Shown here: positions 11,344 through 61,525 of the stretch, piece after piece
How the letters are laid out: every line of letters starts with the position of its first letter
How positions within the stretch are numbered: position 1 is the first letter of the stretch
NCBI GenBank assembly: GCA_944392665.1
Contig: CALXXJ010000003.1
Coordinates: forward strand, 3,797-67,796
Reading direction: 5' to 3'
Length of the DNA stretch: 64,000 nt
From: an uncultured Clostridia bacterium
GTDB taxonomy: Bacteria; Bacillota; Clostridia; TANB77; CAG-508
Translations under genes and position numbers: made by a program
Notes under the pieces: model-generated
Told to the model about the DNA's origin: nothing
Databases searched by the model: none
The model's input: only the letters and a program-made list of their open reading frames with translations

Positions 11344-13684
11344 TTAATGTGAAATATCTTCATTTATATTTTCAATATAATATTCTCTAATTTTCATTAT
11401 TAGCTCATTTTTATCACATCCTAGTTTATCTGATAAATCTTCTAACACATCATCGACATCTTCTCCCATATCAATTCTCTTAAGAATTTCCGTTTTTATT
11501 TGTGCTATATCTTTATCTTCATCATATACTCTATTTAAAGCTTCATTTTCTACATCTGATTTATCATCTTTTACTTCAAGATTTCCATACTTATCTGTAT
11601 TGTAACATGTTCTAGTTTCTCTTATTACAAAATTATCCAATATTATTTTGCCTTTCATTGCCAATTTGGCTCTCAGTGTTATTTTTCTAAAAAGTGTGTC
11701 TTCATCATCTTCATGATTTTTTTCTAAATCACCACATTTTTCTATAATATATAGAAATGTATCTGATGCATAATCATCTATCTTTGAAGCAATTTTATAA
11801 TTGTTGCACAATTTTACTGCTATAGCTCTAGAAATATTTGTAATTCTATTTACATATTTCTGTATAAATTCTGTTGAACACCCTATTTTTTTCTTGCCAT
11901 ACCAACATCCATTTTGTTTTTCTAATATTTCTTTAATTTCCTTTACATCATAAATAAATATTGTCAATATATATTTTAAGCACTCTTCAAATGTAATATC
12001 ATTTTCCTCTGCAAATGTTTTTATTTCTTGTTTTGAATGAAATTCTACATTTGTATTTTTTATACTATTTTTAAAATTATCTTTTGCTTTTTTTATTCTT
12101 TTGTTTAAAATTGGTTGTTTTAAGCCTTTTCGTAAAATTCCGTATATCAACACCGATTACTTCAGCAAAAGTTCTTCTAGTTCCTTGTTTACCAAATTTT
12201 TCATGAATTTTTTCAAATTCTTCTAAGTCTATCCTATATCCTAAATAATAACCATTACTATCAAGAGATTTAGATATCTCTGTACCATATTTTTCTAGCA
12301 GTCCTAAAAAAATTCTTGCTTTGATTTTTCTTTTTCCTCTCATATCATGCAATTTACTTTTAGGAATTTCTAATATTTGTTCTGCATAATCCCTTTCTAA
12401 TAATCTAATAGGATATTTTATATATATTTCTCTCAAACAATCTATATCTATCCATTCACCTATTTGTAATTCCTTTAATATTCCTTGTTGTAAAGCTTTA
12501 ATTTCATCTGGAGAAATTTTTTCATTTTGTAGTATAATCACTTTCTTTTTTGCGTTATTAGTAAATTTCAAACTATAAAATACTTCTTGTTTAATATCTA
12601 ATATTTTCTCTGCAAATTCTTTTTCATTTAATGGGAAATAATTCTCATCATATATCCTTTTAAATTGTTCATAAGTTATCATCTCTCCTATATGTAAATT
12701 TTCTTTTTGGATAAGTTTTTTTCTAAAATTAGATACTGTATTCTCGTCTATTTCTAAGTTTTTTAATATAACTGCTTTATTCCCATTGCTTTTGATTGTT
12801 CTGAGACTTGCTTCAGTTATATCTAACATTTTTTCAGCAAATTCTTTTTCTGATAAAACAGTATAATATTTATCAAAAATTGCTTTAAATTCATCATAAT
12901 TCATTCCTTGTTTTTTATAAAGTTTTTCTTTCCAAATAATATATCTTCTAATTTTTAAAATTAATTCTTCACTTATAGTAGTTTTCTTTAAAATCCACAC
13001 TCTTTTTTGTGGATAGCATCTAGCCTCTGTGTATACTTTATTAGTTATATCCAATATTTTATTCATAAAATCTATTTCTGATATTCTGATATGATGTTTT
13101 TCAAATAAATTTCTACATTGTTCATATGTTAATGTATCACCTGAATGCAGTTTTTCTTCTTTTAAAAGTTTTTCTTTAAAACTTCTAATTTCTTCATCAC
13201 TAACTTCCTCATTTTCCAATATTGATGTCTTTGCTTTATCTGGTTTGGCTTTTATATTTCTAAGTCTAAAATTTGTAATATCTAGCATTTTTTCAAAATA
13301 TTCCTTTTCTTCTAAAGGTAAGAAATATTGCTCATTTTCAAAAAACTGTCTTATTTTATTATAAGTTAGTTGTTGGTCTTTATGTAATCTTTCTTGACAA
13401 ATCAGTTTTTCTCTTATATTTTTTATTCCTTGAGAATCGACTTGATAGTTTTTCAATATTTTTGCCGAACCCTTTGCATATTTCATGGCTTTTAAGGATA
13501 GTAAAGTAATCTCTAATATTTTTTCTGCAAATTCTTTCTCATTTAAAAAAATCCCTTCTTGCCCTAATATTTCTTGTGATTTTTTATAAATTTCAAGAAA
13601 TTCTTGATAATATATGCTATCGTTTTTGCGCAGTTTTAGTGTGTATATTATTAATCTTTTACATTTTTCTAACTTATCTTTCAA
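11344..13684 (-). pseudogene. large hypothetical protein of tandem ~76-aa HTH-like modules, split by a frameshift in a homopolymer (T7 at 12088-12094)
   Basis: ORFs 12077..13684 and 11344..12153 overlap by 77 nt. The modules (consensus ..EKEFAEKILDIT..L..IK....K..IL.N..I....I...R.KL..E..LH.G..ITYEQ..) continue across the junction (..RTFAEVIGVDIRNFTKRL.. then ..QEIKTFAEENDITFEECLKYI..). The downstream ORF has only a TTG 'start' inside the upstream ORF. Confidence 0.45.
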
Positions 13685-13765
13685 AATTTTCTCCTCTAAT
13701 CAAAATTTTCCGTATATTATTGTATCACTTTTATGAACATTATGTCAATTTGTAGCCATATAAGT

Positions 13766-13793
13766 AATACCTATCCGCACTTGGATAGGTATT
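13766..13793. terminator. perfect 11-bp stem hairpin (AATACCTATCC-gcactt-GGATAGGTATT) just downstream of mutS
   Basis: Seen directly. It lies between the mutS stop (13800) and the start of the upstream HTH-repeat gene. No strong T-run follows. Confidence 0.35.
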
Positions 13794-13799
13794 ATCAAA

Positions 13800-16427
13800 T
13801 TACTTCATCTTTTCTTTTATTCTTACCAATGTATTTAATGCATCAATTGGTGTTAATTCATTTAAATTAATTTTATCAATTTCATGAGCAATTTCTGCTA
13901 ATTTGAAATTATACATATCAAATTGGCCTTCTACTTGCTTCTTATCTTTCTTTTCTTCTTTTTTTCCTGTTAAGATATTTTTTCTTTCTAAAGATTTTAA
14001 GATTTTATTTGCCTCTTCTGTTACTAATTTTGGAACACCTGCTAATCTTGCTACATGAATACCATAGCTTTCATCTGTTCCTCCTCTAACAATCTTTCTT
14101 AAAAAGATAATATCTTCTCCTTTTTCTTTAACGGCAATAGAATAGTTTTTTACACCTTCTATTTTTTCTTCTAGTTCAGTTAATTCATGATAATGTGTTG
14201 CAAATAAAGTTTTTGCTCCGCATTTTTCTTTGTTGGCAATATATTCTGCTACTGCCCAAGCAATTGATAATCCATCATAGGTAGATGTTCCTCTTCCAAT
14301 TTCATCTAAAATAACTAAACTGTTTGGTGTTGCTTCTTTTAAAATCGTTGCTACTTCCATCATTTCTACCATAAAAGTACTTTGTCCCATACTTAAATCA
14401 TCAGATGCCCCTACTCTTGTAAAAATTTTATCTACTACCCCAATTTTTGCTTCTTCTGCTGGTACAAAACTTCCGACTTGTGCCATTAAGGTAATCAATG
14501 CCACTTGTCTCATATATGTTGATTTACCAGCCATGTTAGGTCCTGTTATGATAGATAATCTATTTTCATTTTTATCTAAATAGGTATCATTTTCAACAAA
14601 TTCTCCTGCACCTAGCATTTTTTCGATAACAGGATGCCTTCCTCCCTTGATATCAATAATACCTGAATTATCTACTTGTGGCATACAGTAATTCATATCT
14701 TCTGCTACCTGTGCAAATGATGCTAATACATCTAAAGTAGATATCATTGTTGCTGTTTTTTGTAATCTGATAACATTTTTAGCAATTTCTTCCCTTATTT
14801 TCGTAAATAAATCATATTCTAGGCTAACGACTTTTTCTTCTGCTCCTAAAATTTGGTTTTCTAAGTTTTTTAGTTCTTCTGTAATATATCTTTCTGCATT
14901 TGTTAAGGTTTGTTTTCTGATATATCTTTCAGGAACTTGATCTAAGTTTGATTTGGTAACTTCTATAAAATAGCCAAATACCTTATTAAATCCTACTTTT
15001 AAGTTCTTAATTCCTGTTTTTTCTTTTTCATCAGCTTCTAATTGAATAATCCAATTTTTTCCTTCTGTTGTTGCTGTTTTTAATTTATCAACCTCTTCAT
15101 TATATCCCATTTTAATGATTCCACCATCTTTTACAGTCATTGGTGGATCATCTATAATGGATTTTTCAATCAATTCATAAATATCTTGTAATTCATCTAG
15201 ATTCTCATATATATCTTTTAACATTGGAGATTCCGTGGTTTGCAAAACACTTTTTACTTCTGGTAATCTTGCTAAAGAATTTTTTAATGTAATCATATCT
15301 CTTGCATTGGCATTACCATAAGCCATTTTACCTGCTAATCTTTCAATATCATAAACTTTTTTTAGATTATCTACAACATCTCCTCTTAGCATGACATTTT
15401 CTTTTAATTCTTTGACAGCTTCTAATCTTCTATTAATCTCTAAAGTATCAATTAATGGATCATTTAACCATCTTCTTAAGTGTCTTCCTCCCATAGAAGT
15501 TGATGTTTTATCTAACACCCATAATAAAGTTCCTTTTTTAGATTTATCTCTCATCTTTTCTGTGATTTCTAGATTTCTTCTAGCATTAATATCTAATGAC
15601 ATATATTTTGATATTTGATAAACCGTAATTTTATTAATATGGTCTAAACTCGTCATTTGCGTTTGTTCTATGTATTCAATTAATGCATTGATACTTGCTA
15701 CTGCAAAACTTCTTTCTTCTATATTTTCAATTGGTTTTTGATTGGTATCTACTAAATTAAATCTTAATTTAATAATATCTGGTTTACTATCAAAAAATTT
15801 ATCTTGAAATCTTGTAATATATGTACTAAAACGTTCTCTAATTTTACTCATTTCTTCTGTGCAATCTGCTAAATTAGAGTTGATTACTAACTCTGATGGT
15901 GAATATCTTGCAATCTCATCTAATAATTGTGGAAAATTATTATTGTCTTTAATTTCTGCTGCATAAAATTCTCCCGTTGATATATCACATACACTAATAC
16001 CAAAATAGATTCCAGATTTAAAAATAGACATGATATAGTTATTTTTTCTTTCTTCAAGCATATTACTTTCTACAATGGTACCTGGTGTAACTACTCTAAT
16101 AACCCCTCTTTTGACAATGCCTTTTGCATTTTTAGGGTCTTCTAATTGTTCACATATAGCCACTTTGTATCCTTTTGCAATTAATCTGGAAATATACATT
16201 TCAGCTGCATGATGTGGTACACCTGCCATTGGTGCTCTTTCTTCTTGTCCACAATCTTTTCCTGTTAATGTAATTTCTAGTTCTCTTGCTGCAGTAATGG
16301 CATCATCAAAAAACATTTCGTAAAAGTCACCTAATCTATAAAACAAGATGCAATCTTTGTATTGTTCTTTGGTTTCAAGATATCTCTGCATCATAGGTGA
16401 AAATTCTTTGTTTTTATTTTCTGACAT
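13800..16427 (-). CDS. mutS: DNA mismatch repair protein MutS
   Basis: 875 aa with the mismatch-binding N-terminus (GDFYEMF) and a Walker A motif (GPNMAGKST). Confidence 0.95.
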   Translation of the reverse strand: MSENKNKEFSPMMQRYLETKEQYKDCILFYRLGDFYEMFFDDAITAARELEITLTGKDCGQEERAPMAGVPHHAAEMYISRLIAKGYKVAICEQLEDPKNAKGIVKRGVIRVVTPGTIVESNMLEERKNNYIMSIFKSGIYFGISVCDISTGEFYAAEIKDNNNFPQLLDEIARYSPSELVINSNLADCTEEMSKIRERFSTYITRFQDKFFDSKPDIIKLRFNLVDTNQKPIENIEERSFAVASINALIEYIEQTQMTSLDHINKITVYQISKYMSLDINARRNLEITEKMRDKSKKGTLLWVLDKTSTSMGGRHLRRWLNDPLIDTLEINRRLEAVKELKENVMLRGDVVDNLKKVYDIERLAGKMAYGNANARDMITLKNSLARLPEVKSVLQTTESPMLKDIYENLDELQDIYELIEKSIIDDPPMTVKDGGIIKMGYNEEVDKLKTATTEGKNWIIQLEADEKEKTGIKNLKVGFNKVFGYFIEVTKSNLDQVPERYIRKQTLTNAERYITEELKNLENQILGAEEKVVSLEYDLFTKIREEIAKNVIRLQKTATMISTLDVLASFAQVAEDMNYCMPQVDNSGIIDIKGGRHPVIEKMLGAGEFVENDTYLDKNENRLSIITGPNMAGKSTYMRQVALITLMAQVGSFVPAEEAKIGVVDKIFTRVGASDDLSMGQSTFMVEMMEVATILKEATPNSLVILDEIGRGTSTYDGLSIAWAVAEYIANKEKCGAKTLFATHYHELTELEEKIEGVKNYSIAVKEKGEDIIFLRKIVRGGTDESYGIHVARLAGVPKLVTEEANKILKSLERKNILTGKKEEKKDKKQVEGQFDMYNFKLAEIAHEIDKINLNELTPIDALNTLVRIKEKMK

Positions 16428-16991
16428 TTATATTTCTTCTCCTTTTTCTTCTTTTTCTCTTTGCTTTTTTTCTCTGGCTAATTCTCTTTTTATTTCTTGG
16501 TAATGTTTCATATTTTTTTCTACTCCAGTATGTGAAATCGTTACATTTCCCAGTAAAGTCGTTCCTGAGCTAATAATTCTAGCTGCTTCAGCATAACTTC
16601 CATTAGCCTGTTCTACAATTTTCTCCATAATACTTAGCTTTCTTAGCAAGTCTTCTAATTCTGGTTTTGTAACAACAGGTCTACTAGGTAAATCCTCTAT
16701 CTTCTGCTGCAATTTCTCAGGTAATTCCTCTTTTTGTATATTCGGTACATACTGTTTTTCATACAAATCTATGATAGATAAATCTCCTCCACTTTCTTTT
16801 ATTTTTCTAATATTTCTAATTACTGTAGATCTTGCAATTTTTAGTTCATTTCTTGCTAAACATTCTTCAATTGAGCATCTTTCTTTCATAGCTTGTATCA
16901 ATAATGCTTCATAATCTATGTGTGTGTATTGCTTTGGTTTTATTCTACCTTGCTTATTATTTTTTTTATTTTTTTCCTCCATTACATACAC
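16428..16991 (-). CDS. hypothetical HTH-domain protein, translationally coupled to mutS
   Basis: 187 aa with a putative HTH (IEECLARNELKIARSTVIRNIRKI). Its stop abuts the mutS start. Confidence 0.4.
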   Translation of the reverse strand: MYVMEEKNKKNNKQGRIKPKQYTHIDYEALLIQAMKERCSIEECLARNELKIARSTVIRNIRKIKESGGDLSIIDLYEKQYVPNIQKEELPEKLQQKIEDLPSRPVVTKPELEDLLRKLSIMEKIVEQANGSYAEAARIISSGTTLLGNVTISHTGVEKNMKHYQEIKRELAREKKQREKEEKGEEI

Positions 16992-18396
16992 TTCCTTTTA
17001 AATACCACATATGTTCTGATACAATCTTTAAATCTATCATTTGGTTGATCAAGCTTTTGTCTCCTTCAAAGATAACCACTTTATTGCTATCTGTTCTTCC
17101 TGTTAACATGTTTTCATTATTCTTACTTGTTCCTTCAACTAACACTTTTTGAACAGTTCCTACATATTTTTGGTTATTCTCTTCGATTTGGCTTTCTACC
17201 AATGCTTTTAATCTATCAAAACGTTTGTGTTTGATTTCTTCTGGAATTTGATTTTCCATTTTATCTCCTGGTGTTCCTACTCTTCTTGAATAGATAAACA
17301 TATATACTTGTTCAAACCTTACTTTTCTTACAACATCTAATGTATCTTCAAATTCTTCCTCTGTCTCTCCTGGAAATCCAACAATAATATCTGTTGATAA
17401 TGTTAAATTTGGTATTTTTGCTTTCATCTTTTCCACTAGATTTAGATATTGTTCTTTCGTATATTTACGATTCATTGCTTTTAATACATTTGTATTTCCA
17501 GATTGTAATGGTAAATGTACTAATTTACATACTTTATCACAATTAGCAATTGCTTCAATTACATCATCTGTAAAATCTTTTGGATGTGGTGAAACAAATC
17601 GAATTCTCTCAATTCTATCTATTTTGTTAATTGCTTTTAATAATGTAGCAAAAGAATTAACACCATCATATTCTTCAAATGGTTTTCCTTTTTCTTTTTC
17701 CACTCGTAAATAGGAATTGACATTTTGCCCTAATAAAGTAATTTCTTTGTATCCTTGTTTTGCTAATTCTTCTACTTCTTTAATAATCTCTCTAGGTTCT
17801 CTACTTCTTTCTCTTCCCCTTACATAAGGGACAATACAATAGGTGCAAAAATTGTTACAACCATTCATAATGGTAACAGATGCTTTTATATTGCTATCTC
17901 TTTTAATTGGTAAGCCTTCATATATTTCTCCATCAATATCTAAAATATCTTCTTGTTTTTTCTTTTCCATTAATGCTTTGTATAAGTCTTCTGGAAAACG
18001 ATATAATGTATGTGTTCCAAATAAGATATCTACAAAAGGATAGCTTTCTTTAATTTTATCTGTTATATGTTTTTCTTGCATCATACAACCGCCAATCGCG
18101 ATAATGGTCCCTTTTTCCTCTTTTACGCGTTTTAATTCTCCCAATTTTCCAAATAGTTTATCTTCTGCATTTTCTCTTACACAACAGGTATTAAATAAGT
18201 TTAAATCAGCATCTTGAAAGTCATCAGTTCTAATATATCCCATTTTTTCCAACATACCACAAAGTTTTTCTGAATCATTTTCATTTAATTGACATCCCAT
18301 TGTCAAAATATGATATTTTAACGTTTTTCCTTGATTTAATTCTTTCACTTTTTCTATATATTCTTCTTGTTTTTTTACTTCTTTTATTGTATTCAC
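16966..18396 (-). CDS. miaB: tRNA-2-methylthio-N6-dimethylallyladenosine synthase
   Basis: MTTase N-terminal domain (ILTMGCQLNENDSE), a radical-SAM CxxxCxxC motif and a TRAM domain. 476 aa. Confidence 0.9.
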   Translation of the reverse strand: MNTIKEVKKQEEYIEKVKELNQGKTLKYHILTMGCQLNENDSEKLCGMLEKMGYIRTDDFQDADLNLFNTCCVRENAEDKLFGKLGELKRVKEEKGTIIAIGGCMMQEKHITDKIKESYPFVDILFGTHTLYRFPEDLYKALMEKKKQEDILDIDGEIYEGLPIKRDSNIKASVTIMNGCNNFCTYCIVPYVRGRERSREPREIIKEVEELAKQGYKEITLLGQNVNSYLRVEKEKGKPFEEYDGVNSFATLLKAINKIDRIERIRFVSPHPKDFTDDVIEAIANCDKVCKLVHLPLQSGNTNVLKAMNRKYTKEQYLNLVEKMKAKIPNLTLSTDIIVGFPGETEEEFEDTLDVVRKVRFEQVYMFIYSRRVGTPGDKMENQIPEEIKHKRFDRLKALVESQIEENNQKYVGTVQKVLVEGTSKNNENMLTGRTDSNKVVIFEGDKSLINQMIDLKIVSEHMWYLKGSVCNGGKK

Positions 18397-18531
18397 GCTT
18401 ATACCTCCATCATCTGCATATTTTATTATATTTTGGCGATTTTTGCAAGAAATTTGTCAGTAAAATCTTTTTTTAACTTGTTTTTAATGGTATAATATAT
18501 TAAAAGATGTACGAAGGAGGATTTTAGGAAT

Positions 18532-19200
18532 ATGGGAGATTTTGATTCTTTACAAAAAACAAAAATGTCTAAAAGAGCTGGAACTTCTAATGTAATTGAA
18601 CTATATAGACAAGCAAAAAAAACAAATAGAAGTATTACACTTACAGAATTACAAACTTTAAATATTGAATATTTGCAAAAGAATGATATAAGAAGAAAAA
18701 TAAATTCCACTTTACTTGCTTTATGGGGAATGCTTGATATGAAGTCCTATATAGATGCTATATTTGGTAATACAATAAATCCATATTTTTTGAACACAAA
18801 AGACTTACTTCCTATAAAAGATTTACCAGAATATACATATCTTTCTGATGAATCAAGACTTTTAAATTTACTAGATATTAAATATATTAAAGGTTTTGAA
18901 TTAGAGGGGGTTTCATTTAATGAAGTATTTTTAGTAACTTACGAAATTGCAGATAAAGATAATTATTTTAGACCGTATGTAACATTTTTAACACTAAATC
19001 AAGATAACCAATTTATTGAATTTGGATATGGATATGATACAAATGATAATGGAAATGTAGAACTGTTCCTATCTGCATATAATTATTTGGTTTATTTAAC
19101 TCCAAAAGGAACGATTCTGTCTCCTTTATCTGGTAAAATGACAAAATTAAAAATTCAAGATATTTTAACTTCTGAAGAAATTTCAAGATTATATAAATAA
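18532..19200 (+). CDS. hypothetical protein
   Basis: 222-aa ORF with a GGAGG RBS (AAGGAGGATTTTAGGAATATG), followed by a strong terminator. Confidence 0.4.
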   Translation: MGDFDSLQKTKMSKRAGTSNVIELYRQAKKTNRSITLTELQTLNIEYLQKNDIRRKINSTLLALWGMLDMKSYIDAIFGNTINPYFLNTKDLLPIKDLPEYTYLSDESRLLNLLDIKYIKGFELEGVSFNEVFLVTYEIADKDNYFRPYVTFLTLNQDNQFIEFGYGYDTNDNGNVELFLSAYNYLVYLTPKGTILSPLSGKMTKLKIQDILTSEEISRLYK

Positions 19201-19205
19201 ATATG

Positions 19206-19241
19206 AAACCACTTCTCGAAAATGGAGGTGGTTTCTTTTTT
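19206..19241 (+). terminator. rho-independent terminator (AAACCACtTC..GAgGTGGTTT plus T6)
   Basis: Stem-loop followed by TTTTTT immediately after the stop of the 18532..19200 gene. Confidence 0.6.
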
Positions 19242-19323
19242 AGAAATACCTTCCTTACAGATATTTTTTTATTTTAAAAAAAATAAAAGTAGAGATTTTC
19301 TACTTCCATTTTTATAACTTTTC

Positions 19324-19524
19324 CTATGCAAGTCCATATTTTTTCTTAAATCTATCTGCTCTACCACCAGCTGTCTCTTGTCTTAAGTTTCCTGTCCAGA
19401 ATGGATGACATTTAGAGCATATATCTACTTTGATATCTTTTTTTGTTGAACCAACTTCTAAAACATTTCCACATGCACATGTGATTGTAGTTTGGTTGTA
19501 ATTTGGATGTATTCCTTCTTTCAT
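19324..19524 (-). CDS. rpmE: 50S ribosomal protein L31
   Basis: [20 protein letters not shown]...[10 protein letters not shown]. 66 aa. Confidence 0.9.
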
Positions 19525-19602
19525 TGATTGTTCACCTCTTTCTTAAATTGAAATAATATGACTGTTTTTCATCATAACATATTTTTTTATATTTTTCAAG
19601 AC

Positions 19603-19782
19603 CTAATTTGTGTTATTTTCATTATTATTTGTTTCATTTTGTTGTTGGTCATATATATATTGCGCAGAAGACAACATTTCACTGTTTAGTGAAAGTTTGT
19701 GTACTAATTTATTCATGATATTAAACACACAAGCTATAATTAAAATAAGCATTCCAATTTTTTTCCAATATTTAGCAAGCAT
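19603..19782 (-). CDS. putative small membrane protein (59 aa), below the ORF-track size cut-off
   Basis: Minus-strand ATG with an AGGAAG RBS 8 nt upstream. The product MLAKYWKKIGMLILIIACVFNIMNKLVHKL... has one TM helix and an Asn/Gln-rich tail. Confidence 0.3.
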   Translation of the reverse strand: MLAKYWKKIGMLILIIACVFNIMNKLVHKLSLNSEMLSSAQYIYDQQQNETNNNENNTN

Positions 19783-19886
19783 ATGTTTTTCTTCCTTTCA
19801 TAAATATCCATATATAATTATATATATTTTTTCGTGAATTGTCAATATTTTTTTAAGTTTTGGTTACAATAAAATTGGTGATTTAA

Positions 19887-20636
19887 ATGAATAAAAAGTT
19901 AAAAATCTTTATCATCATTGGACTAGTTGCATTAATTGGAATTGGTGTTTATGTTTATATACAAAACACTAATAAAAATAATGAACAAAGCAATTATGAA
20001 GCTGATAAAACTTCAGCAGAAAACAATGCATCTAGTGAAGAAAATACAGATAATACAGAAAATACATCTAATAATGAATCTACTACCAATTCAAATACTT
20101 CAGATAATACATCAGAAGCTACAAATGTAACCTCTGAAAACACTTCAAGTACAGAAAGCGCAACAAAAACAGTCGAAGAACAACTCTCTGCTTTTTCCAC
20201 AAAAATCTATTCCAATGATACAAATAGAACAAAAAATATGGAAATTACAACTTCCACATTAAATGGAACTATTGTAAAAAATGGTGAAACATTTTCTTTT
20301 TGTAATACGGTTGGTCCTGCCACAAGTAGTAAAGGTTATTTAGAAGCTGATATCTATGATCATGACGGTAACAAGAAAAAAGGTTATGGCGGTGGCAATT
20401 GTCAAGTTAGCAGTACTTTATATAACGCTGTATTAGCCGTTTCTAGCTTGACTGTTATTGAGAGACATCCACATAGTAATCATGTCCCATATGTAGCCGA
20501 TGGTAAAGATGCTGCTGTTGCTTCTGGTAGTTATGATTTTAAGTTTCGAAATGATACAGGAAATGATATAAAAATCTTATCTTCTGTTACAGAAGGTTTA
20601 GTAAATGTTACATTAATGAGTTTAAAAACACAATAA
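19887..20636 (+). CDS. VanW-family protein
   Basis: N-terminal TM, an S/T/N-rich linker, then the VanW domain (..GETFSFCNTVGP...GYGGGNCQVSSTLYNAVL...ERHPHS). 249 aa. Confidence 0.7.
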   Translation: MNKKLKIFIIIGLVALIGIGVYVYIQNTNKNNEQSNYEADKTSAENNASSEENTDNTENTSNNESTTNSNTSDNTSEATNVTSENTSSTESATKTVEEQLSAFSTKIYSNDTNRTKNMEITTSTLNGTIVKNGETFSFCNTVGPATSSKGYLEADIYDHDGNKKKGYGGGNCQVSSTLYNAVLAVSSLTVIERHPHSNHVPYVADGKDAAVASGSYDFKFRNDTGNDIKILSSVTEGLVNVTLMSLKTQ

Positions 20637-20686
20637 GGGATTTTGGGGACGGACTCAAATTTCCCTTTTTTCTTTTGCGAACATTT

Positions 20687-20718
20687 TGTCCTTTTGGGGA
20701 CGTTTCTGTTTGGGACAT
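20687..20718 (+). repeat. REP-like palindromic repeat, copy A (TGTCCTTTTGGGGACGTTTCTGTTTGGGACAT)
   Basis: Exact 32-mer. The flanking TTTTGGGGACGG at 20641-20652 is a partial extra copy. Confidence 0.75.
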
Positions 20719-20875
20719 TTTTATATAAAATTAATTTTAGAAAAGTAAATGTATTAAATTTTATTTATTCTGCAACGCATGCTAAGTAAAACAAATAAAA
20801 TTGAATATATTTACTTTGTTTTTTTGTTGTAAGTGAAAAAAACGTCCAAATGGAAACGTCCCCAATTGTCCCAAA

Positions 20876-20908
20876 ATGTCCCAAACAGAAACGTCCCCAA
20901 AAGGACAT
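20876..20908 (-). repeat. REP-like repeat, copy B (inverted relative to A); fragments precede it at 20840-20875
   Basis: ATGTCCCAAACAGAAACGTCCCCAAAAGGACAT is the reverse complement of the consensus. AAACGTCCAAATGG and GAAACGTCCCCAATTGTCCCAAA are partial copies. Confidence 0.75.
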
Positions 20909-20950
20909 AATTTTTGTTTTTCTTAATATCATTTAAAAAGGTGATATTTT

Positions 20951-22462
20951 TTGAGAAAGACAAAACTATTTTTTATTAATGGTATTATTTTAACCATAAC
21001 CGCACTTAGCATGCGTGGTATTGGATTAATTTTTAATATATATGTAGCTAATAAAGTAGGTTCTGAAGCTATTGGTATCTTTAGCTTAATTATGTCTGTT
21101 TATAATTTTGCAATTACAGTTGCTACTTCTGGGATTGGAATTGCTTGTACTTGTATTGTTTCAGAGGAATTTGCAAAAGGAAATTATATTACTGGCATTA
21201 AAGCTGTAAAAACCTCTATTATATTTGCTGTATTGTTAGGGTTTCTTTCTTCTGGTCTTGTGATTCTATTTGCCCCTATCATTTCTACTATCTGGTTAAA
21301 AAATATGGTTTCTGAAATTCCTCTTTACCTAATTTCACTAGGACTACCATTGATTTCTGTTTCCTCTGTGATTGGTGGGTATTTTTCTTCTGTTGAAAAA
21401 CCATACAAAAGTGCTATTTCACAAATTTTAGAAACCAGTGTAAAAATCATCGCTACTGTTTGTTTACTGTATTTCAATCCTTCAAAAGATGTAGAATCCA
21501 TTTGTATTTACCTTATCTTAGCTGATGTCATTTCTGAAATATTCTCCTTTAGTTTAAATATCATCTTTTATCTGATTGATAGAAGAAAATACATATCTAA
21601 AAGAAGTTTACCAGTACAGATGAAGAAAAAGATTTTTACGATTGCTTTTCCAATTAGTATCACTTCTTGCATCCGTTCTGGGCTTTCTTCTTTAAAACAA
21701 TTTCTAATTCCAATTCGATTAGAATTGTCCGGCATTTCCTATTCTTTAGCTGTTTCTAACTATGGATTAATTAGTGGAATGGTTATGCCTGTTATTATGT
21801 TTGCAAATGTTTTAATTGGCTCTTTTAGTGGTTTATTAGTTCCAGAATTTTCACGATTGCTTGCTGGTGGAAATTATAATAGACTAAAAACAGTTTGTGA
21901 TACGATTTTTAAAGTTACATTTATTTTTTCTATTTGTGTGACAGGTGTTTTTATTATATTTGCTAATGAAATTAGCCTTATGGTGTATCAATCTATAGAA
22001 GCTGGTAAATGGATAAAAATATTAGCACCTCTTATCTTTTTTATGTATATTGACAATATTATTGATAATATGTTAAAAGGCATCAATGAACAAGTAAGTG
22101 TTATGATTTGTAACATTATTGATTTATTAGTTACTATTTCGATTATCTTTTTTCTTGTTCCGATTATGGGAATGTATGGATATATTTTAAGTATTTTTGT
22201 AAGTGAACTTTTAAATTTTACGATTAGTAGTATTCAACTAAAGAAAAAAATTAATTATTCTGTGAATTTTAAAAAATTTATTATAAGACCTATTTTTGCT
22301 TGTCTAGTGTCTTATTTACTGATTAAACTATTACCTATCACTTTTTCAAATTTTTCATTAAATACCATTATGCAAATTGCCTTATTCATCTTGTTTTATT
22401 TGATTTTTATGATTGTATTTGATAGAAAACGTGTTTATATGAAAATAAAAGAATTTTATTGA
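20951..22462 (+). CDS. MOP-superfamily polysaccharide-biosynthesis flippase (SpoVB/MurJ-like)
   Basis: 503 aa and about 14 TM helices. The N-terminus resembles SpoVB and polysaccharide biosynthesis proteins. It has a TTG start with an AAGGTGA RBS. Confidence 0.5.
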   Translation: MRKTKLFFINGIILTITALSMRGIGLIFNIYVANKVGSEAIGIFSLIMSVYNFAITVATSGIGIACTCIVSEEFAKGNYITGIKAVKTSIIFAVLLGFLSSGLVILFAPIISTIWLKNMVSEIPLYLISLGLPLISVSSVIGGYFSSVEKPYKSAISQILETSVKIIATVCLLYFNPSKDVESICIYLILADVISEIFSFSLNIIFYLIDRRKYISKRSLPVQMKKKIFTIAFPISITSCIRSGLSSLKQFLIPIRLELSGISYSLAVSNYGLISGMVMPVIMFANVLIGSFSGLLVPEFSRLLAGGNYNRLKTVCDTIFKVTFIFSICVTGVFIIFANEISLMVYQSIEAGKWIKILAPLIFFMYIDNIIDNMLKGINEQVSVMICNIIDLLVTISIIFFLVPIMGMYGYILSIFVSELLNFTISSIQLKKKINYSVNFKKFIIRPIFACLVSYLLIKLLPITFSNFSLNTIMQIALFILFYLIFMIVFDRKRVYMKIKEFY

Positions 22463-22535
22463 TTTAAAATCATTTTATAAAATATGTTCAAGCAGAGACT
22501 AAAAAAAGTCTCTACTTGAACTAATGCAATGAATT

Positions 22536-23525
22536 TTACTCTACTCCTGTAGCAATAACTGTAACAACAACTTTGTCATCTAAAGATTCATCTGTAATCG
22601 TTCCAAATACAACATTAGCATCTTCATTAATTAAATCATTAATTTTACCTATACCATCATTAATTTCACTTAATGCCAATTCAGAGTTTCCTCGAACATT
22701 AAAGATAACCCCTTTTGCATTATTAATTTTATTTTCTGTAAGAGCATTGTCGATGGCTTGATTAACTGCATCTATCATTCTGCCTTCTCCTTCGGCCTCT
22801 CCGATTCCCATATAAGCCATTCCTTTATATGTCAACATAGTTGTAATATCTGCAAAATCAACATTAATATCTCCTACTGATGTAATTAAATCTGTAATAC
22901 TTTTGATTCCTTGTTCTAATACATCATCTGCCATTTTAAACGCATTAATGACACTCATCTTTTGAGTTCCAGCAATTTTCAATAATTTATCATTTGAAAT
23001 TAGAATTAAGCTATTAACATGTTGTTTTAATTTTTCAATTCCTGCATCTGCTCTACTTGATCTCAATCTTCCTTCAAAAAGAAATGGTTTTGTAACAATC
23101 GCAATTGTTTGAATTCCCATTTCTTGTGCAATTTCTGCAACTACTGGGATTGCTCCTGTTCCAGTTCCTCCTCCCATTCCTGCTGTTAAGAATAATAATT
23201 GTGTACCTTCTAATAATTTCTTAATATCTTCTTTACTTTCAATTGCTGCTTTTTCTCCCATATCAGGATTAGCTCCTGCTCCTAATCCTTTAGTGGTTTC
23301 TTTTCCAATTTGTAATACATTTTCCATTTTTGTTTTATTTAACATCGCAAGCTCTGTGTTGATAAAATAAAATTCAACATCTTTTACTTTATCTTCAACC
23401 ATTTGTCTAACAGCATTATTGCCACCTCCACCAATTCCAATGACTTTTATTTTTGGGATTGACGTTTTTATTTCTCCATATATATTTCCATAATTGTTTC
23501 CATATTTATTTTCTATTTGTATCAT
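22536..23525 (-). CDS. FtsZ-like tubulin-family GTPase, a paralog without a C-terminal tail
   Basis: [13 protein letters not shown], the GGGTGTG tubulin signature, GLGAGANP and a T7-loop NVDFAD are all present. At 329 aa it ends at the globular core (..VTVIATGVE) with no linker or C-terminal peptide, and it has a 25-aa N-terminal extension. It is monocistronic and outside any dcw cluster. Confidence 0.8.
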
Positions 23526-23757
23526 TTTTACAACCTTCCTTTTCTAATTTACTTTTGTATGTATCGTTTAGTATTATATAGTTTCCTTTTAAAATTTTCA
23601 ATACCAATCTGTACTTTTTTGAAAACTTCATAGATAAATACCAATATTTTATCACATAAACCATACTTAAAGATATTTTTACGAAAATTTGTTTTTAAAA
23701 ACTATTGCATTTTAATTTTTTGAATGATATAATCGTACATATGTTTGGAGGTATGTT

Positions 23758-25056
23758 ATGGATATTTTTGATAAATTAAAAATACTTGCTGATTCTGCTA
23801 AATATGATGCTTCTTGCAGTTCTAGTGGTAGTGATCGAAAAAATATAAACAATGGAATTGGAAATGGCCATGTTTCTGGTATTTGTCATAGCTGGGGTGC
23901 AGATGGTAGATGCATTTCTCTTTTAAAAATTTTATTTACAAATGCCTGTATGTATGATTGCAAATATTGTATTAATCGCTCTTCCAATTCTGTACCTAGA
24001 GCTACCTTTACGCCTCGTGAAGTTGCAGATTTAACCATTCATTTTTATAAACGAAATTACATAGAAGGACTATTTTTAAGTTCAGCAGTTATCAAATCTC
24101 CTGATTATACAATGGAAAGATTAGTTGAAACAGCATCTATACTAAGGAATGAATATCATTTTAATGGATATATTCACTGTAAAACTATTCCTGGTTGTAG
24201 TCAAGAATTAATTGATAAATTAGGGGTTTTAGTAGACAGGATGAGTATTAATATAGAACTTCCTTCAAATGATAGTTTGAAATTATTAGCGCCACAAAAA
24301 GAAAAAGATGGAATTTTAAAACCAATGACCTATATTTCCAATACCCTAAAATTAAATAAAATGGATAAATCGAAATATAAAAAGAAATTTGTTCCAGCAG
24401 GTCAAACTACACAATTAATGGTTGGTGCTACACCTGAAACAGATTTAAAAATATTAAAACTTTCTGAAGGAATGTATAAATCTTTAAAACTAAAAAGAGT
24501 CTATTATTCTGCTTATGTTTCTATTAATAATGATAAAAACTTACCTACTTTAGAAAAGCCTCCCCTTTTGAGGGAAAATAGACTTTATCAAGCAGATTGG
24601 CTACTTCGATTTTATGGATTTCAAGCAGATGAATTATTAAATGAAGAACATCCAAATTTCAACACTTTATTAGACCCTAAATGTGATTGGGCTTTAAGAA
24701 ATTTAGATAAATTCCCAATAGAAATCAATACTGCCAATTATCACACTTTACTTAGAATTCCTGGAATTGGTGTCATTAGTGCCAAGAAAATTATTACTGC
24801 TAGAAGAGAATTCTTGTTAGATTTTGAAAGTCTAAAAAAATTAGGTGTTGTCTTAAAAAGAGCACAATATTTTATAACTTGCAAAGGAAAATATTTTTAT
24901 GAAGTCAATAAATTTAACAAAAAATTTATTGAAACCAATTTATTATATACTGAAAGAAACACCATTCCACAAAAGAAATTTGAACAATTATCTATGTTTG
25001 ATACATTGTTACCTACAAAGGAGGATAAAATAAAATGTCTAACTGGAAGCTTGTAA
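23758..25056 (+). CDS. putative DNA modification/repair radical SAM protein (TIGR03916-like) with a C-terminal HhH
   Basis: CxxxCxxC (CMYDCKYC), an N-terminal Cys cluster and an HhH (LLRIPGIGVISAKKI). It forms a conserved pair with the downstream gene. Confidence 0.7.
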   Translation: MDIFDKLKILADSAKYDASCSSSGSDRKNINNGIGNGHVSGICHSWGADGRCISLLKILFTNACMYDCKYCINRSSNSVPRATFTPREVADLTIHFYKRNYIEGLFLSSAVIKSPDYTMERLVETASILRNEYHFNGYIHCKTIPGCSQELIDKLGVLVDRMSINIELPSNDSLKLLAPQKEKDGILKPMTYISNTLKLNKMDKSKYKKKFVPAGQTTQLMVGATPETDLKILKLSEGMYKSLKLKRVYYSAYVSINNDKNLPTLEKPPLLRENRLYQADWLLRFYGFQADELLNEEHPNFNTLLDPKCDWALRNLDKFPIEINTANYHTLLRIPGIGVISAKKIITARREFLLDFESLKKLGVVLKRAQYFITCKGKYFYEVNKFNKKFIETNLLYTERNTIPQKKFEQLSMFDTLLPTKEDKIKCLTGSL

Positions 25057-25793
25057 ACACAACCTATTTATATGATGGTACATTTGATGGATTATTAACC
25101 ATTGTTTTTGAGAGCTATTCTCATAAAACATTACCACAAAAAATTGTTTCAGAGGAGGAATATACACAAAATTTTTTAGATAAAACACAATATATAAATA
25201 CCAATTATGAAAAGGCAAAACGTGTTTTTGAAGGAATCAACAAAAATATTTGCTATGAAGCTTTATATAATAGTTTTTATGCTTTTTTATCAGATGGAAA
25301 AGAAAAAGAAATTAAAATTTTAAAATATTTATGTGATGGGTTTGACATTGGTCCTAAAATTAACACCATGCTTACTATTTCTTATGTCTTTTCTGTTATT
25401 AATATGAGAAAAAGAGCTTTATCAGAATGCCATAAGTTAAAAGGATTGCTTCGATTTATGGAAATTGGAGAAAATCTATATTATGCTTCTATTCATCCAG
25501 ATAATAATATCATAGAACCTTTAGGACATCACTTTATTAGAAGGCTACCTACACAAAACTTTATCATACACGATAAAAATAGAAATATTTGTTTTTTATA
25601 CAATACACAAGAATACAAAATTATTGATAGTACTAATTTAACAATTCCTGATATTACTGAAGAAGAACAAAAATATCAAGAACTTTGGAAACTATTTTTC
25701 AAAACCATTGCCATACAAGAAAGAAAAAATACTAGATGTCAAATACAGTTTATGCCTAAAAAATATTGGCAAGATTTAATTGAAGAACCATAA
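25035..25793 (+). CDS. TIGR03915/DUF4130-family putative DNA-metabolism protein, partner of the radical SAM protein
   Basis: 252 aa, overlapping the upstream gene by 22 nt (translational coupling). This is the canonical pair arrangement. Confidence 0.6.
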   Translation: MSNWKLVNTTYLYDGTFDGLLTIVFESYSHKTLPQKIVSEEEYTQNFLDKTQYINTNYEKAKRVFEGINKNICYEALYNSFYAFLSDGKEKEIKILKYLCDGFDIGPKINTMLTISYVFSVINMRKRALSECHKLKGLLRFMEIGENLYYASIHPDNNIIEPLGHHFIRRLPTQNFIIHDKNRNICFLYNTQEYKIIDSTNLTIPDITEEEQKYQELWKLFFKTIAIQERKNTRCQIQFMPKKYWQDLIEEP

Positions 25794-25824: not shown

Positions 25825-25911
25825 CTTTTCTTAAATAAGTTTTAAGTCAATCAGAAATTTATAAAATTTTAAATTTTTGATTGACTTTTATTAATTGATT
25901 AAAATTAAGGG

Positions 25912-25940
25912 TTGCCAAAATGGCACGTCCCCTTTGGCAA
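25912..25940 (-). repeat. hairpin repeat family 2, inverted copy (TTGCCAAAATGGCACGTCCCCTTTGGCAA), abutting the permease stop
   Basis: Reverse complement of the 25796 copy with one mismatch. Another palindrome (AGTCAATCAGAAATTT..AAATTTTTGATTGACT) is nested between the copies. Confidence 0.6.
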
Positions 25941-25943
25941 CTT

Positions 25944-30775: not shown

Positions 30776-30806
30776 ATTTCTCCTTTTGTCCTTTTGAAAT
30801 TGTTTC

Positions 30807-30838
30807 TGTCCTTTTGGGGACGTTTCTGTTTGGGACAT
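30807..30838 (+). repeat. REP-like repeat, copy C, in the response regulator-to-kinase spacer
   Basis: Exact 32-mer. A partial duplication (TGTCCTTTTG...GTTTCTG) lies just upstream at 30786-30806. Confidence 0.75.
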
Positions 30839-30923
30839 TTTTATGTAAATCTTTCTGTATGATTCATAAATCTATGGTAATAACTGTCCCTTGGAATCAA
30901 TTTTTAAACAATTTAGTACGTCC

Positions 30924-43145: not shown

Positions 43146-43251
43146 TTTAATTATATCCTTTCTTCACTTTTAAATTACTATCAATCTTCATTCTTTTAAG
43201 TTAAATTCTTTTATCAATATTTTTTTAAATTCTAAATCTATTTAAAACAAA

Positions 43252-43284
43252 ATGTCCCAAACAGAAACGTCCCCAAAAGGACAT
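43252..43284 (-). repeat. REP-like repeat, copy D, abutting the accB stop codon
   Basis: ATGTCCCAAACAGAAACGTCCCCAAAAGGACAT. It generates the spurious ORF 43252..43482. Confidence 0.75.
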
Positions 43285-43748
43285 TATTTAATTTTAAATA
43301 ATGGTGTACCATATTCTACAACATCTTCATTTTTTACACAAATTTCTACAACTTCACCATCAAATTCTGATTCGATTTCGTTCATTAATTTCATTGCTTC
43401 TACAATACATACAACTTGTCCTTTTGAAATTTTATCTCCAACTTTTACATATGGATCTTTATCTGGTGATGAACTTGCATAAAAAGTACCTACCATTGGT
43501 GATTTAATAACTTTATAGTTTTCTTCTTTTTTATCTTCTACTGCAACTATTCCTTTTTCTTCTTGTGGTCTTACAGCAGGAACAGACATTGGCGCACTTG
43601 CTTCTATAACGTGTGGCTCTAGGATAACTTCTCTTTTTTCACTTTTTTTCATACTGATTTTTACACCGTCTGGAAATTCAATTTCTAATTCTTCTAATTT
43701 TGAATTTCCCATATCGTCCATTAATTTTTTAATTTCCTTATAATCCAT
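43285..43748 (-). CDS. accB: biotin carboxyl carrier protein
   Basis: Biotinyl-lysine motif EAMKLMN. 154 aa. Confidence 0.85.
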
Positions 43749-47310: not shown

Positions 47311-47332
47311 TCTTTCTTCATCCTTTCTTTTT

Positions 47333-47362
47333 TGTCCATTAGGGACGTTTCCTTTTGGACAT
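47333..47362 (+). repeat. REP-like repeat, variant copy E (TGTCCATTAGGGACGTTTCCTTTTGGACAT)
   Basis: A variant of the consensus. It forms a perfect 30-bp inverted pair with 47434-47463. Confidence 0.7.
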
Positions 47363-47433
47363 TTTATATGAATTTATAATCGTAAAATGTTATATAAATA
47401 TTTTTTATTAAAAATGAATGTGTTTTACAAAAA

Positions 47434-47463
47434 ATGTCCAAAAGGAAACGTCCCTAATGGACA
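47434..47463 (-). repeat. REP-like repeat, variant copy F, the exact reverse complement of copy E, abutting the fabH stop
   Basis: ATGTCCAAAAGGAAACGTCCCTAATGGACA. Confidence 0.7.
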
Positions 47464-47464
47464 A

Positions 47465-52921: not shown

Positions 52922-52928
52922 ATAAAAA

Positions 52929-52961
52929 ATGTCCCAAACAGAAACGTCCCCAAAAGGACAT
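52929..52961 (-). repeat. REP-like repeat, copy G, abutting the stop of the 52963..54315 gene
   Basis: ATGTCCCAAACAGAAACGTCCCCAAAAGGACAT. Confidence 0.75.
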
Positions 52962-52962
52962 T

Positions 52963-60610: not shown

Positions 60611-60725
60611 TTAGATTAATATAAATAAAATAAATGAAATTAAAAATGCTATGAGCAACAAATATATAGTAAAAATACAAATTAGAAAACATAACACTAA
60701 ATTTTATAAAATATGGAGGTATCAA

Positions 60726-61475
60726 ATGTTAAACGTATTCGTAAATGGTTGTAATGGAAAAATGGGAAATGTGGTATGTAGTTTAGTAGAAGAAAATGAA
60801 AATATGCAAGTCATTGGTGGATTTGACAAAGTAAGTTATTCTGATTCTAAATTCCCAATTTTTACAGAAGTAGAAAATATTGATGTAAAACCAGATGTCA
60901 TCATTGACTTTTCACTTCCTGTTGCAACACTAAATATATTAAATTATGCAAAAACAAATAAAATACCAATGGTTATTGCCACAACTGGATTTACAGATGA
61001 AGAAACAAAAATAATTGAAGAAGCAAGTAAAACAATTCCTATCTTTAAATCTGCTAATATGTCCTTTGACATTATGCTTATGAAAAAAGTTGTTTCTTGG
61101 CTTGCACCACTTTTAAAAAATACAGATATTGAAATTATTGAAGCACATCATAATAGAAAAGTGGATAGTCCAAGTGGTACTGCCCAAATGTTAGCAGATA
61201 GTATTAATGAATCTTTAGGAAATACGCTTCATTGCGAATATAACAGACATGATAAACATGAAAAAAGAGATAAAAACGAAATTGGTATGTCTTCTATCAG
61301 AGGTGGAAATATTGTTGGTGAGCATTCTGTTCAATTTATTGGCAATTTTGAAACTTTCGAAATTAAGCATACCAGCTATTCTAGAAATGTATTTGCAGAA
61401 GGTGCTTTAAGAGCTGCTGAATTTATTGCCAGCCAACAGCCTGGTATGTATGCTATGGAAGATATGTCCTTTTAG
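60726..61475 (+). CDS. dapB: 4-hydroxy-tetrahydrodipicolinate reductase
   Basis: Start MLNVFVNGCNGKMG with a GGAGG RBS and EAHHNRKVDSPSGTA. The stop codon TAG (61473-61475) lies inside REP copy H. Confidence 0.9.
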   Translation: MLNVFVNGCNGKMGNVVCSLVEENENMQVIGGFDKVSYSDSKFPIFTEVENIDVKPDVIIDFSLPVATLNILNYAKTNKIPMVIATTGFTDEETKIIEEASKTIPIFKSANMSFDIMLMKKVVSWLAPLLKNTDIEIIEAHHNRKVDSPSGTAQMLADSINESLGNTLHCEYNRHDKHEKRDKNEIGMSSIRGGNIVGEHSVQFIGNFETFEIKHTSYSRNVFAEGALRAAEFIASQQPGMYAMEDMSF

Positions 61476-61496
61476 GGATGTTTCTGTTTGGGACAT
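61465..61496 (+). repeat. REP-like repeat, copy H (two substitutions), overlapping the last 4 codons and stop of dapB
   Basis: TGTCCTTTTAGGGATGTTTCTGTTTGGGACAT. Confidence 0.7.
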
Positions 61497-61525
61497 TTTT
61501 ATGTTAATCATCTGTATTAAGTTAA

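Follow-up and report, generated by a model that had tools for sequence, protein, structure and literature searches.

Inverted repeats between a VanW-domain gene and a flippase gene in an uncultured gut Clostridia genome: a probable BIME/REPIN-like cluster whose repeat family flanks a RAYT-like transposase gene in sister genomes

What are the inverted repeats that fill the spacer between a VanW-domain gene and a SpoVB-like flippase gene in an uncultured Clostridia bacterium (contig CALXXJ010000003.1), and do they serve the flippase gene or themselves? The stretch of DNA analysed here, which we call the window, is 64 kb long with a G+C content of 28%, and the spacer in question measures 314 nt. 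The original prediction for this spacer, made from the letters alone, offered two answers: a non-autonomous mobile element resembling a miniature inverted-repeat transposable element (MITE) or a bacterial interspersed mosaic element (BIME), or a dense operator array controlling the flippase gene. We propose, with a probability of about 0.85, that the spacer is a BIME/REPIN-like cluster belonging to a system of repetitive extragenic palindromes (REPs) and a REP-associated tyrosine transposase (RAYT), with an HUH-Y1 partner enzyme encoded next to radA. We favor this reading because the repeats form a dispersed extragenic family, because they pair in a fixed inverted order, because they flank a RAYT-like gene in sister genomes, and because orthologous spacers are polymorphic. 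On the same grounds, it is the BIME-like non-autonomous mobile element that survives from the original prediction.

The cluster at 20637-20914 consists of four repeat units: A' (type 2), A and B (type 1, inverted relative to each other) and B' (a variant), with A' directly abutting the TAA stop of the VanW gene at 20634-20636 (Table 1). A and B are near-perfect 37-nt type-1 units in opposite orientation that enclose a decayed palindromic module. The inverted repeat I1, to whose arms they belong, has two 42-nt arms (20680-20721 and 20873-20914) that are 95% complementary and separated by 151 nt. These arms, lying between genes with PF04294 and PF01943 matches, bear out the claim of inverted REP copies directly upstream of the flippase, and the DNA between them is AT-rich as claimed, at 151 nt and not the 157 bp first given. 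Where at least five GGGAC/GTCCC sites had been noted, we count seven of these pentamers between 20646 and 20893, and 36 across the window. The three half-copies that had been described beside the main copies are real sequences, but they are parts of the two units A' and B' and not separate fragments: AAACGTCCAAATGG and GAAACGTCCCCAATTGTCCCAAA jointly make up the single minus-strand unit B' (variant GGGACAATTGGGGACGTTTCCATTTGGAC), a sequence that also borders the transposase gene in the relative L125 (here and below, L numbers denote individual loci in other assemblies). The type-2 sequence GGGATTTTGGGGACGGACTCAAATTTCCC of A' spans 20637-20665, includes TTTTGGGGACGG, and folds as RNA at -11.8 to -13.6 kcal/mol. 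Type 2 is itself a dispersed family, with 41 matches in the related loci examined (searched without indels), and it forms '+-' pairs of its own. We considered A' as a type-1 unit split by an insertion and rejected this, A' being a complete copy of the separate type-2 family. The type-1-like remnant between A' and A is also kept in L071, the orthologous spacer of the MAG (metagenome-assembled genome) CAWVJG. Unit B turns its GTCC end toward the flippase gene, 41 nt 5' of the TTG start. As single-stranded DNA, the whole element folds at -67.1 kcal/mol, compared to -27.4 +/- 3.4 for shuffled sequences (z = -11.6).

These units are members of an abundant family. The type-1 consensus, (A)ATGTCCTTTTGGGGACGTTTCTGTTTGGGACATTTT, is an imperfect palindrome of about 37 nt, and when 180 unique copies are aligned together with the sequence on either side, conservation sinks to the background level beyond about 37 nt, which gives the units sharp boundaries. 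The window has six occurrences of the 21-nt core GGGGACGTTTCTGTTTGGGAC, where shuffled sequences lead one to expect 0.00. A profile search of the window with nhmmer recovers eight full units plus fragments, or about one unit per 8 kb, and all eight are consistent with the family rules set out below. Outside the window, the 29-mer GTCCTTTTGGGGACGTTTCTGTTTGGGAC is found exactly in more than 110 stretches from 18 species-representative MAGs of a one-genome-per-species collection, a count that is a lower bound. These MAGs are labelled uncultured Clostridia, Eubacteriales or Bacillota and derive from human, mouse, chicken and other gut samples. Four MAGs, represented by partial genomes only, hold at least 42, 40, 33 and 25 units. 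At least three related unit types have the core TTGGGGACG in common, and one variant type, GTCCATTAGGGACGTTTCCTTTTGGAC, forms the second doublet of the window (47332-47464), which occupies the fabH-fabD spacer.

In its predicted fold, a type-1 unit has AATGTCC/GGACATT as the outer stem and, past an internal loop, a weak inner stem around GGGGA-CGT-TTCT; a T-run comes next, and the invariant block GGGGACG lies inside the hairpin. As RNA, the outer stem of 7-8 bp and the weak inner stem fold at -11 kcal/mol (z = -2.5), a structure that is present but weaker than canonical REP hairpins. The variant unit at 47332 takes a hairpin-loop-hairpin form with an RNA fold of -15.2 kcal/mol (z = -5.2). The loop core TTTTGGGGACG is common to types 1 and 2, whose foot stems are unlike each other (GGGA/TCCC in type 2). 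Since each foot is nevertheless self-complementary, we argue that the stem is a real feature. Units in sense orientation end in the T-run and are flagged by a terminator scan.

The placement of the units follows rules that hold across the family. They are mostly extragenic, with 143 classified units in extragenic contexts and five inside open reading frames (ORFs). Roughly half of the units are solo, and tandem units also occur. When two type-1 units are neighbours within 1.5 kb, the order is '+-' in 43 cases and never '-+', with six '++' and seven '--', and the GTCC end points outward, toward genes. The spacers within pairs range from 12 to 1373 nt, the 12-nt spacer of L065 defining the minimal doublet. 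Of 162 units, 75 have the end of an ORF of at least 80 codons no more than 12 nt away (9% for random non-coding placements), and in 65 of the 162 (40%) a stop codon in the sense direction lies 1-4 nt before GTCC, compared to 1.5% for random non-coding placements. The commonest junctions between stop and unit are TAA-T-GTCC (35) and TAA-AAT-GTCC (19). AAT precedes GTCC in 58 of the 75 stop-adjacent copies, lengthening the outer stem, whereas TTTT occupies this position in 55 of the 87 others. In one case in the window, the unit at 61463-61499 provides the last four codons and the TAG stop of ORF 60651-61475 (TTTTGG to TTTTAG). Upstream of genes, about 24 of 65 units abut the Shine-Dalgarno (SD) sequence with their GGAC end, in the form GGACAAAA-GGAGG-N-ATG; examples are L108 (4281), L100 (3270), L041 (5141), L033 (7033-7061, before radA) and the window unit at 30807-30841. 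Units thus bracket cistrons at the stop codon and at the ribosome-binding site.

In the sister genomes, a transposase gene lies between paired units. A '+-' pair encloses an ORF of 256-257 aa in L033 (CAWVJG), L048 (CAWVJB) and L027 (CAJFLB). The 256-aa product matches the Pfam family Y1_Tnp with 57.7 bits (cut-off 23), and its best NCBIfam model is REP_Tyr_transpos, at 61.5 bits versus 22.6 for IS200. A search of PDB with the single sequence gave no match; a profile built from 26 relatives has as its sole PDB match 4ER8, the E. coli TnpA_REP (E = 0.019), and H60/H62, Y119 and N123 align with the catalytic H59/H61, Y115 and N119 of that structure. When the AlphaFold model (predicted local distance difference test score, pLDDT, of 92.4) is compared with PDB folds, 4ER8_A ranks first (E = 1.7e-6) and the IS608 and ISDra2 transposases come behind it. 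YIHQNP (Y119, N123, P124) and W137-S138-S139 are invariant, the latter within a serine motif, YKWSS, that follows the catalytic tyrosine, and the distance from HUH to Y is about 57 aa. The part C-terminal to the catalytic core is confidently modelled and mostly helical, with weak matches to the helix-turn-helix (HTH) family HTH_23 in 4 of 26 members. Judged by its features, the enzyme is likely a member of TnpA-Y1 subclass 2.1, or RAYT group 1. There are 845 homologues at E <= 1e-5; the 120 listed are about 200-310 aa long, and one among those listed has been named 'REP element-mobilizing transposase RayT' by JGI.

The transposase gene is single-copy, and relatives that are 58-98% identical keep the same gene order: a radical-SAM gene, a small ORF, the transposase and radA. 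The gene is vertically inherited. Inverted units stand on both sides of it in all assemblies whose flanks were examined, usually in the arrangement REP(+)-gene-REP(-)REP(-)-radA. Such unit-flanked loci come from sister genomes and metagenome contigs (L033, L048, L027, L125, L128, L131, L133 and L134); their flanking arms are 37-42 nt long and 81-86% complementary in L125 and L128, and exact or near-exact 29-mer cores flank the gene in L033, L048 and L131-L134. CAWVJG, the closest genome to the window, has both the transposase (L033) and the orthologous spacer element (L071).

If the cluster is a product of such a system, how does it behave over evolutionary time? Comparison of orthologous loci upholds the expectation of polymorphism: between species the arrangement varies in the presence of units, in the content of the interior and in its orientation. 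The VanW-flippase spacer exists in seven different states across relatives. L071 has A', A, a 248-nt module and B; L064 has A (placed directly on the stop codon), a 226-nt module and B; and L025 has A and B around an unrelated palindromic interior of 93 nt. In L114 the A and B units are diverged and the module is inverted, in L113 there is only B with a remnant of A', in L115 there is only AAGGACATA, the last 9 nt of B, and the more distant L123 has no units. In L001 and L002, which are other assemblies of the window's strain, the spacer is identical, including its orientation. Elsewhere, L087 and L104 have flanks that are 89.7% identical and interiors that are 89% identical when one is reversed, compared to 69% in forward alignment. 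Between L052 and L064, which are separate loci in the same genome, the interiors enclosed by the units share 97.8% identity; the compound can therefore move or be copied whole. At the fabH-fabD spacer, where the window has a doublet, L047 and L016 (flanks about 96% identical) have the module and no REP units, so that the doublet looks like a recent replacement of the entire intergenic region. We also observe that identity to CAWVJG (L071, L068) is 98.5% over window positions 13436-20722 and about 93-94% over 21349-25793. This drop across the element suggests that the genome is a mosaic or that a recombination breakpoint lies at or close to the cluster.

The module enclosed by A and B is a separate palindromic repeat family of about 170-250 nt, found with and without flanking REP units. 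The window segment 20722-20835 resembles by BLAST the 224-248-nt interiors of L052, L064, L071 and L093, and the alignment of orthologs places a central deletion of about 96 nt in the window's interior. At the centre of the module is a hairpin, CAAGTAGGAGAATCTCAAA-loop-TTTGAGAGGTGCCTGCTTG, with T-runs after it on either strand. The module also contains conserved unpaired blocks, and compensatory changes occur in 10 of 33 predicted pairs. The module has no match in Rfam. It could be a mobile bidirectional terminator or a structured RNA.

By analogy with E. coli TnpA_REP and the IS200/IS605 transposases (PMC6006769), the transposase would recognise the unit when it is folded in single-stranded DNA, such as that of the replication fork, and would cleave and rejoin it. 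Such cleavage and rejoining would multiply or maintain units and doublets. In the spacer itself, A' and A lie in sense orientation after vanW, so the vanW mRNA would carry a 3' hairpin with a U-run behind it; this could act as a partial terminator or a stabiliser. On read-through, A and B would pair into a long stem, and its processing could uncouple expression of the flippase from that of vanW.

Several of our own results speak against a REP-RAYT origin, or at least against its canonical form. Folded as DNA, the type-1 stems are weak, at -3.7 to -3.9 kcal/mol (z about -2.1 to -2.2), and the unit starts with (A)ATGTCC and contains no GTAG or GTGG, so that a 5' GT[AG]G foot is absent. On the side of the enzyme, the 61.5 bits for REP_Tyr_transpos fall under that model's curated cut-off of 80, and four of the five residues that contact GTAG are replaced (W94, E100, H101 and R104 by F, S, K and E). 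No transposase gene lies within the 64-kb window, and we infer its presence in the window's own genome from CAWVJG, which is 93-98% identical; when the gene was sought in metagenome samples with the exact strain, the closest matches belonged to different samples, including one within the same BRZ cohort. The relationship between enzyme and units, which consists of co-inheritance and flanking, is circumstantial. Furthermore, the seemingly empty spacer of L115 retains the 9-nt remnant of unit B and is therefore a deletion product, not a clean pre-insertion site. Lastly, the extreme conservation across 18 species and the precise abutment to stop codons and SD sites could mean selection for a host function and not ongoing transposition. 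With regard to the missing foot, a system of the 'TIRYT' type, which has no GTAG tag, fits these sequences better than a canonical REP system, and we read the cluster as belonging to that type.

How do other explanations fare against the same data? In a classical MITE, A and B would be the terminal inverted repeats (TIRs) of a deletion derivative of a DDE-type insertion sequence (IS), mobilised in trans. The 42-nt inverted repeats around 151 nt, the presence and absence between species, and an interior that recurs at other loci, nearly unchanged between L052 and L064, all resemble this. However, target-site duplications are absent from all 41 pairs compared at boundary offsets of 0-4, where identity was mostly 0-2 nt as expected in AT-rich DNA, and the sole transposase between any of the pairs examined is HUH-Y1 and not DDE. 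Solo units with sharp boundaries, which are about half of the family, and tandem units are not expected of IS ends, the contents of the pair spacers are unrelated over their whole 12-1373 nt range, and the module interior also exists without units. A MITE in the classical sense is thus very improbable. A second possibility is an inverton, with A and B as the sites of an invertase and the AT-rich interior as an invertible promoter that phase-varies the flippase (surface polysaccharide) gene. This would account for long inverted repeats around an AT-rich segment just upstream of a polysaccharide flippase gene, and for the opposite interior orientations at orthologous loci (L087 versus L104, and L114 versus L064 and L071). 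Orientation differs between species only, though, with L001 and L002 matching the window, and inversion between long inverted repeats is also possible through ordinary recombination or template switching. In addition, a promoter scan of 20500-21100 gave three sites where 3.5 are expected by chance, none directed at the flippase gene, and no promoter was assigned; no recombinase gene is adjacent; the same pairs also surround the transposase gene, housekeeping spacers and intervals as short as 12-60 nt; and about half of the units are solo. We regard an inverton here as scarcely credible.

The operator array, the other half of the original prediction, treats the GGGAC/GTCCC pentamers as transcription-factor sites that regulate the flippase gene. 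Seven of them do lie within about 250 bp directly upstream, and the modelled C-terminal helical, HTH-like domain of the partner transposase could bind double-stranded DNA. But the pentamers are parts of 37-nt units that recur at dozens of unrelated loci, 40% of the units sit directly after stop codons in sense orientation and not in promoter regions, and orthologs that keep the flippase leader range from four units to none, the leader 3' of unit B persisting even in the unit-less L115. We therefore do not uphold this claim, and give it the least credence of all. A host-selected role at cistron boundaries is a more serious contender, although we still consider it unlikely as the principal explanation. 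Here the transcribed hairpins would terminate, insulate or stabilise mRNAs, and the transposase would be a domesticated maintenance factor; the idea is compatible with a REP-RAYT origin and differs on the reason why units persist. It draws on the excess of units 1-4 nt past stop codons, the AAT extension that distinguishes stop-adjacent copies from the TTTT of others, the sense hairpin with its T-run and terminator-scan flag, the abutment to SD sites, a 29-mer identical across 18 species, and a transposase that is single-copy, syntenic and vertically inherited. In E. coli, ribosomes reportedly stall at REPs no more than 15 nt from a stop codon, with reduced expression of the gene upstream (cited in PMC12306157). 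Against it, the stems are short and weak; at 52926 the unit has a stronger, conventional hairpin 3' of it and so is not the sole 3' structure at that place; and units are readily lost or replaced between close species.

Joining these readings, one could speculate that this is the first clear case of a subclass-2.1/group-1 RAYT that drives or maintains a large REP-like population, with its units co-opted as clade-wide cistron-boundary elements and the module as a second, undescribed structured element that works as a mobile bidirectional terminator or a non-coding RNA. The co-opted units would then stand as TAA-T-GTCC after stops and as GGACAAAA-GGAGG before SD sites, terminating, insulating or stabilising mRNAs, a part of the proposal that we hold just as tentatively. 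DNA-uptake sequences, CRISPR-like solitary repeats, integron attC sites and global-regulator boxes were also candidates for the family, and were dropped after the Y1 transposase was found between unit pairs.

Table 1. Repeat units, enclosed module and flanking genes; coordinates are window positions unless a locus is named
Feature	Position	Strand	Basis or remarks
VanW-domain gene (upstream)	19887..20636	+	ORF list; Pfam PF04294 on the identical gene in L001
Unit A', type-2 REP-like, GGGATTTTGGGGACGGACTCAAATTTCCC plus T-run	20637..20671	+	sole exact match in the window; hairpin with GGGA/TCCC foot
Remnant like the type-1 3' half (TTTCTTTTGCGAACATTTT), between A' and A	20669..20687	+	direct repeat D2, 79% identical to 20703-20721
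Unit A, type-1 REP-like, TTTGTCCTTTTGGGGACGTTTCTGTTTGGGACATTTT	20685..20721	+	nhmmer 44.7 bits; left arm of I1; exact 29-mer core
AT-rich interior, centrally deleted module remnant	20722..20835	.	inner inverted repeat I2, 20742-20769 / 20790-20817
Unit B', variant type-1, GGGACAATTGGGGACGTTTCCATTTGGACGTTTTTTT on the minus strand	20836..20872	-	nhmmer 20846-20868, 17.1 bits; tandem with B, on its inner side
Unit B, type-1, inverted relative to A	20873..20909	-	nhmmer 46.2 bits; right arm of I1
Flippase gene, Polysacc_synt/MatE-type (SpoVB-like), TTG start; outside the element	20951..22462	+	ORF list; Pfam on the identical protein
Solo type-1 unit	30807..30841	+	GTCC end toward the start of a minus-strand gene; partial copy 30786-30808
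Solo type-1 unit	43249..43285	-	2-nt overlap with the TAA stop of minus-strand ORF 43284-43748
Second doublet, left unit, variant TTGTCCATTAGGGACGTTTCCTTTTGGACATTTT	47332..47365	+	nhmmer; 21 nt from the start of ORF 46375-47310
Second doublet, right unit	47431..47464	-	abuts the stop of minus-strand ORF 47465-48400
Solo type-1 unit	52926..52962	-	abuts the TAA stop of minus-strand ORF 52963-54315
Solo type-1 unit, 2 mismatches	61463..61499	+	overlaps the 3' end of ORF 60651-61475
Module copy	L052 1586-1790		
Module copy	L064 1108-1312		
Module copy	L047 3184-3388	-	
Module copy	L016 ~7810-8000		

The ORF at 20951-22462 has a PF01943 (Polysacc_synt) match and weak MatE matches in Pfam. Just before it, a small inverted repeat, AATATCA...TGATATT at 20925-20948, encloses the flippase Shine-Dalgarno sequence (AAAGG) and is kept in all close orthologs, including L115, which lacks REP units. 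This hairpin may provide a translational control that is independent of the REP units. An Rfam scan of the whole window at gathering thresholds has a single match, a T-box leader (RF00230, 111 bits) at 38337-38564 on the minus strand, upstream of the minus-strand ORF 35583-38249. Under permissive Rfam settings, the element and a full-length relative had matches below threshold only, most of them to plant miRNA precursors, which is explained by the element being a long hairpin. A further hairpin at 25895-25945, GTTGCCAAA...TTTGGCAAC, contains GGCACGTCCCC and explains one extra GGGGACG match. It looks like an ordinary terminator between convergent genes and not like a unit of the REP family.

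In Proteobacteria, REP-RAYT systems have been studied in depth. To our knowledge, group 1/subclass 2.1 (the TIRYTs), which is the largest RAYT class, has no convincing repeat partner in systematic surveys and no known role. The present family offers a repeat-rich example from uncultured low-GC gut Clostridia, with a syntenic transposase adjacent to radA, at least three unit types, strict doublet geometry and nucleotide-precise placement, and lends itself to the question of whether repeats of this kind are selfish or domesticated elements, or both at once. For the flippase gene, it means a spacer of generic repeat DNA in place of a dedicated regulator. In practical terms, these MAGs suffer from broken assemblies and confounded intergenic annotation because of the units, which are also convenient strain-typing markers.

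Among known systems, bacterial MITEs such as the Correia elements of Neisseria, RUP, ERIC and Bcr1 are similar in being small inverted-repeat elements that adjoin coding sequences, form long hairpins when transcribed, and can carry or disrupt promoters and terminators. They differ in having target-site duplications, fixed lengths and an origin from DDE insertion sequences, whereas the family described here has no duplications, many solo units and an HUH-Y1 partner.

The REPs and BIMEs of E. coli and the REPINs of Pseudomonas are closer. They too are extragenic, imperfect palindromes of about 35-40 nt, and the mosaic of related unit types that defines E. coli BIMEs (compare Y, Z1 and Z2) has its counterpart in the cluster at 20637-20914. 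Inverted doublets are typical, as in REPINs, and units bracket the transposase gene, as in REPtrons. Like the E. coli TnpA_REP (RAYT group 2; PDB 4ER8), to which its predicted fold is closest, the enzyme is single-copy and vertically inherited. Many E. coli REPs also lie within a few nucleotides of stop codons (260 of 496 are no more than 15 nt away, as cited in PMC12306157), although the nucleotide precision seen here is striking. On the other hand, there is no 5' GTAG at the stem foot here, the invariant GGGGACG is inside the hairpin, the stems are far weaker, and most of the GTAG-contacting residues are replaced. The doublet spacers, unlike those of REPINs, are long and variable and often hold a second, independent palindromic repeat, and the host is a low-GC, uncultured gut Clostridia lineage and not E. 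coli or Pseudomonas.

The closest likeness is to TIRYTs and TIRtrons, in which RAYT-like genes are flanked by non-GTAG inverted repeats that share GGGGWSAS, some of them dispersed in dimers or clusters (Di Nocera, De Gregorio & Rocco 2013, PMC3733652). Quentin et al. 2018 (PMC6006769) equate TIRYTs with TnpA-Y1 subclass 2.1. Proteins of this subclass are long, carry an HTH at the C terminus as well as a serine motif, and have 58-67 aa between HUH and Y. RAYT group 1 maps to the same subclass and occurs in Clostridia (Bertels et al. 2017, PMC5581495; PMC6006769). No TIR example from Clostridia or Firmicutes is described in PMC3733652, the 2018 survey reports that it found no REP-like sequences near subclass 2.1 genes, and a clostridial repeat family of this kind is not described in PMC3733652 or in passages of PMC6006769, PMC5581495 and PMC12306157. 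The system described here shares with TIRtrons a RAYT-like HUH-Y1 gene flanked by long, GTAG-less inverted repeats, and a dispersed family of single units, dimers and clusters. The 256-aa protein likewise has a helical extension at its C terminus that weakly resembles HTH_23; the Y---NP and serine motifs are both present, about 57 aa separate HUH from Y, and the gene is single-copy and syntenic. The TIRtron motif GGGGWSAS fits GGGGACGT or GGGGACGG at the first six positions and differs at the last two (6/8). A further difference is one of scale: the TIR families are described as 'moderately abundant' (PMC3733652), whereas here at least 40 copies are found in partial genomes.

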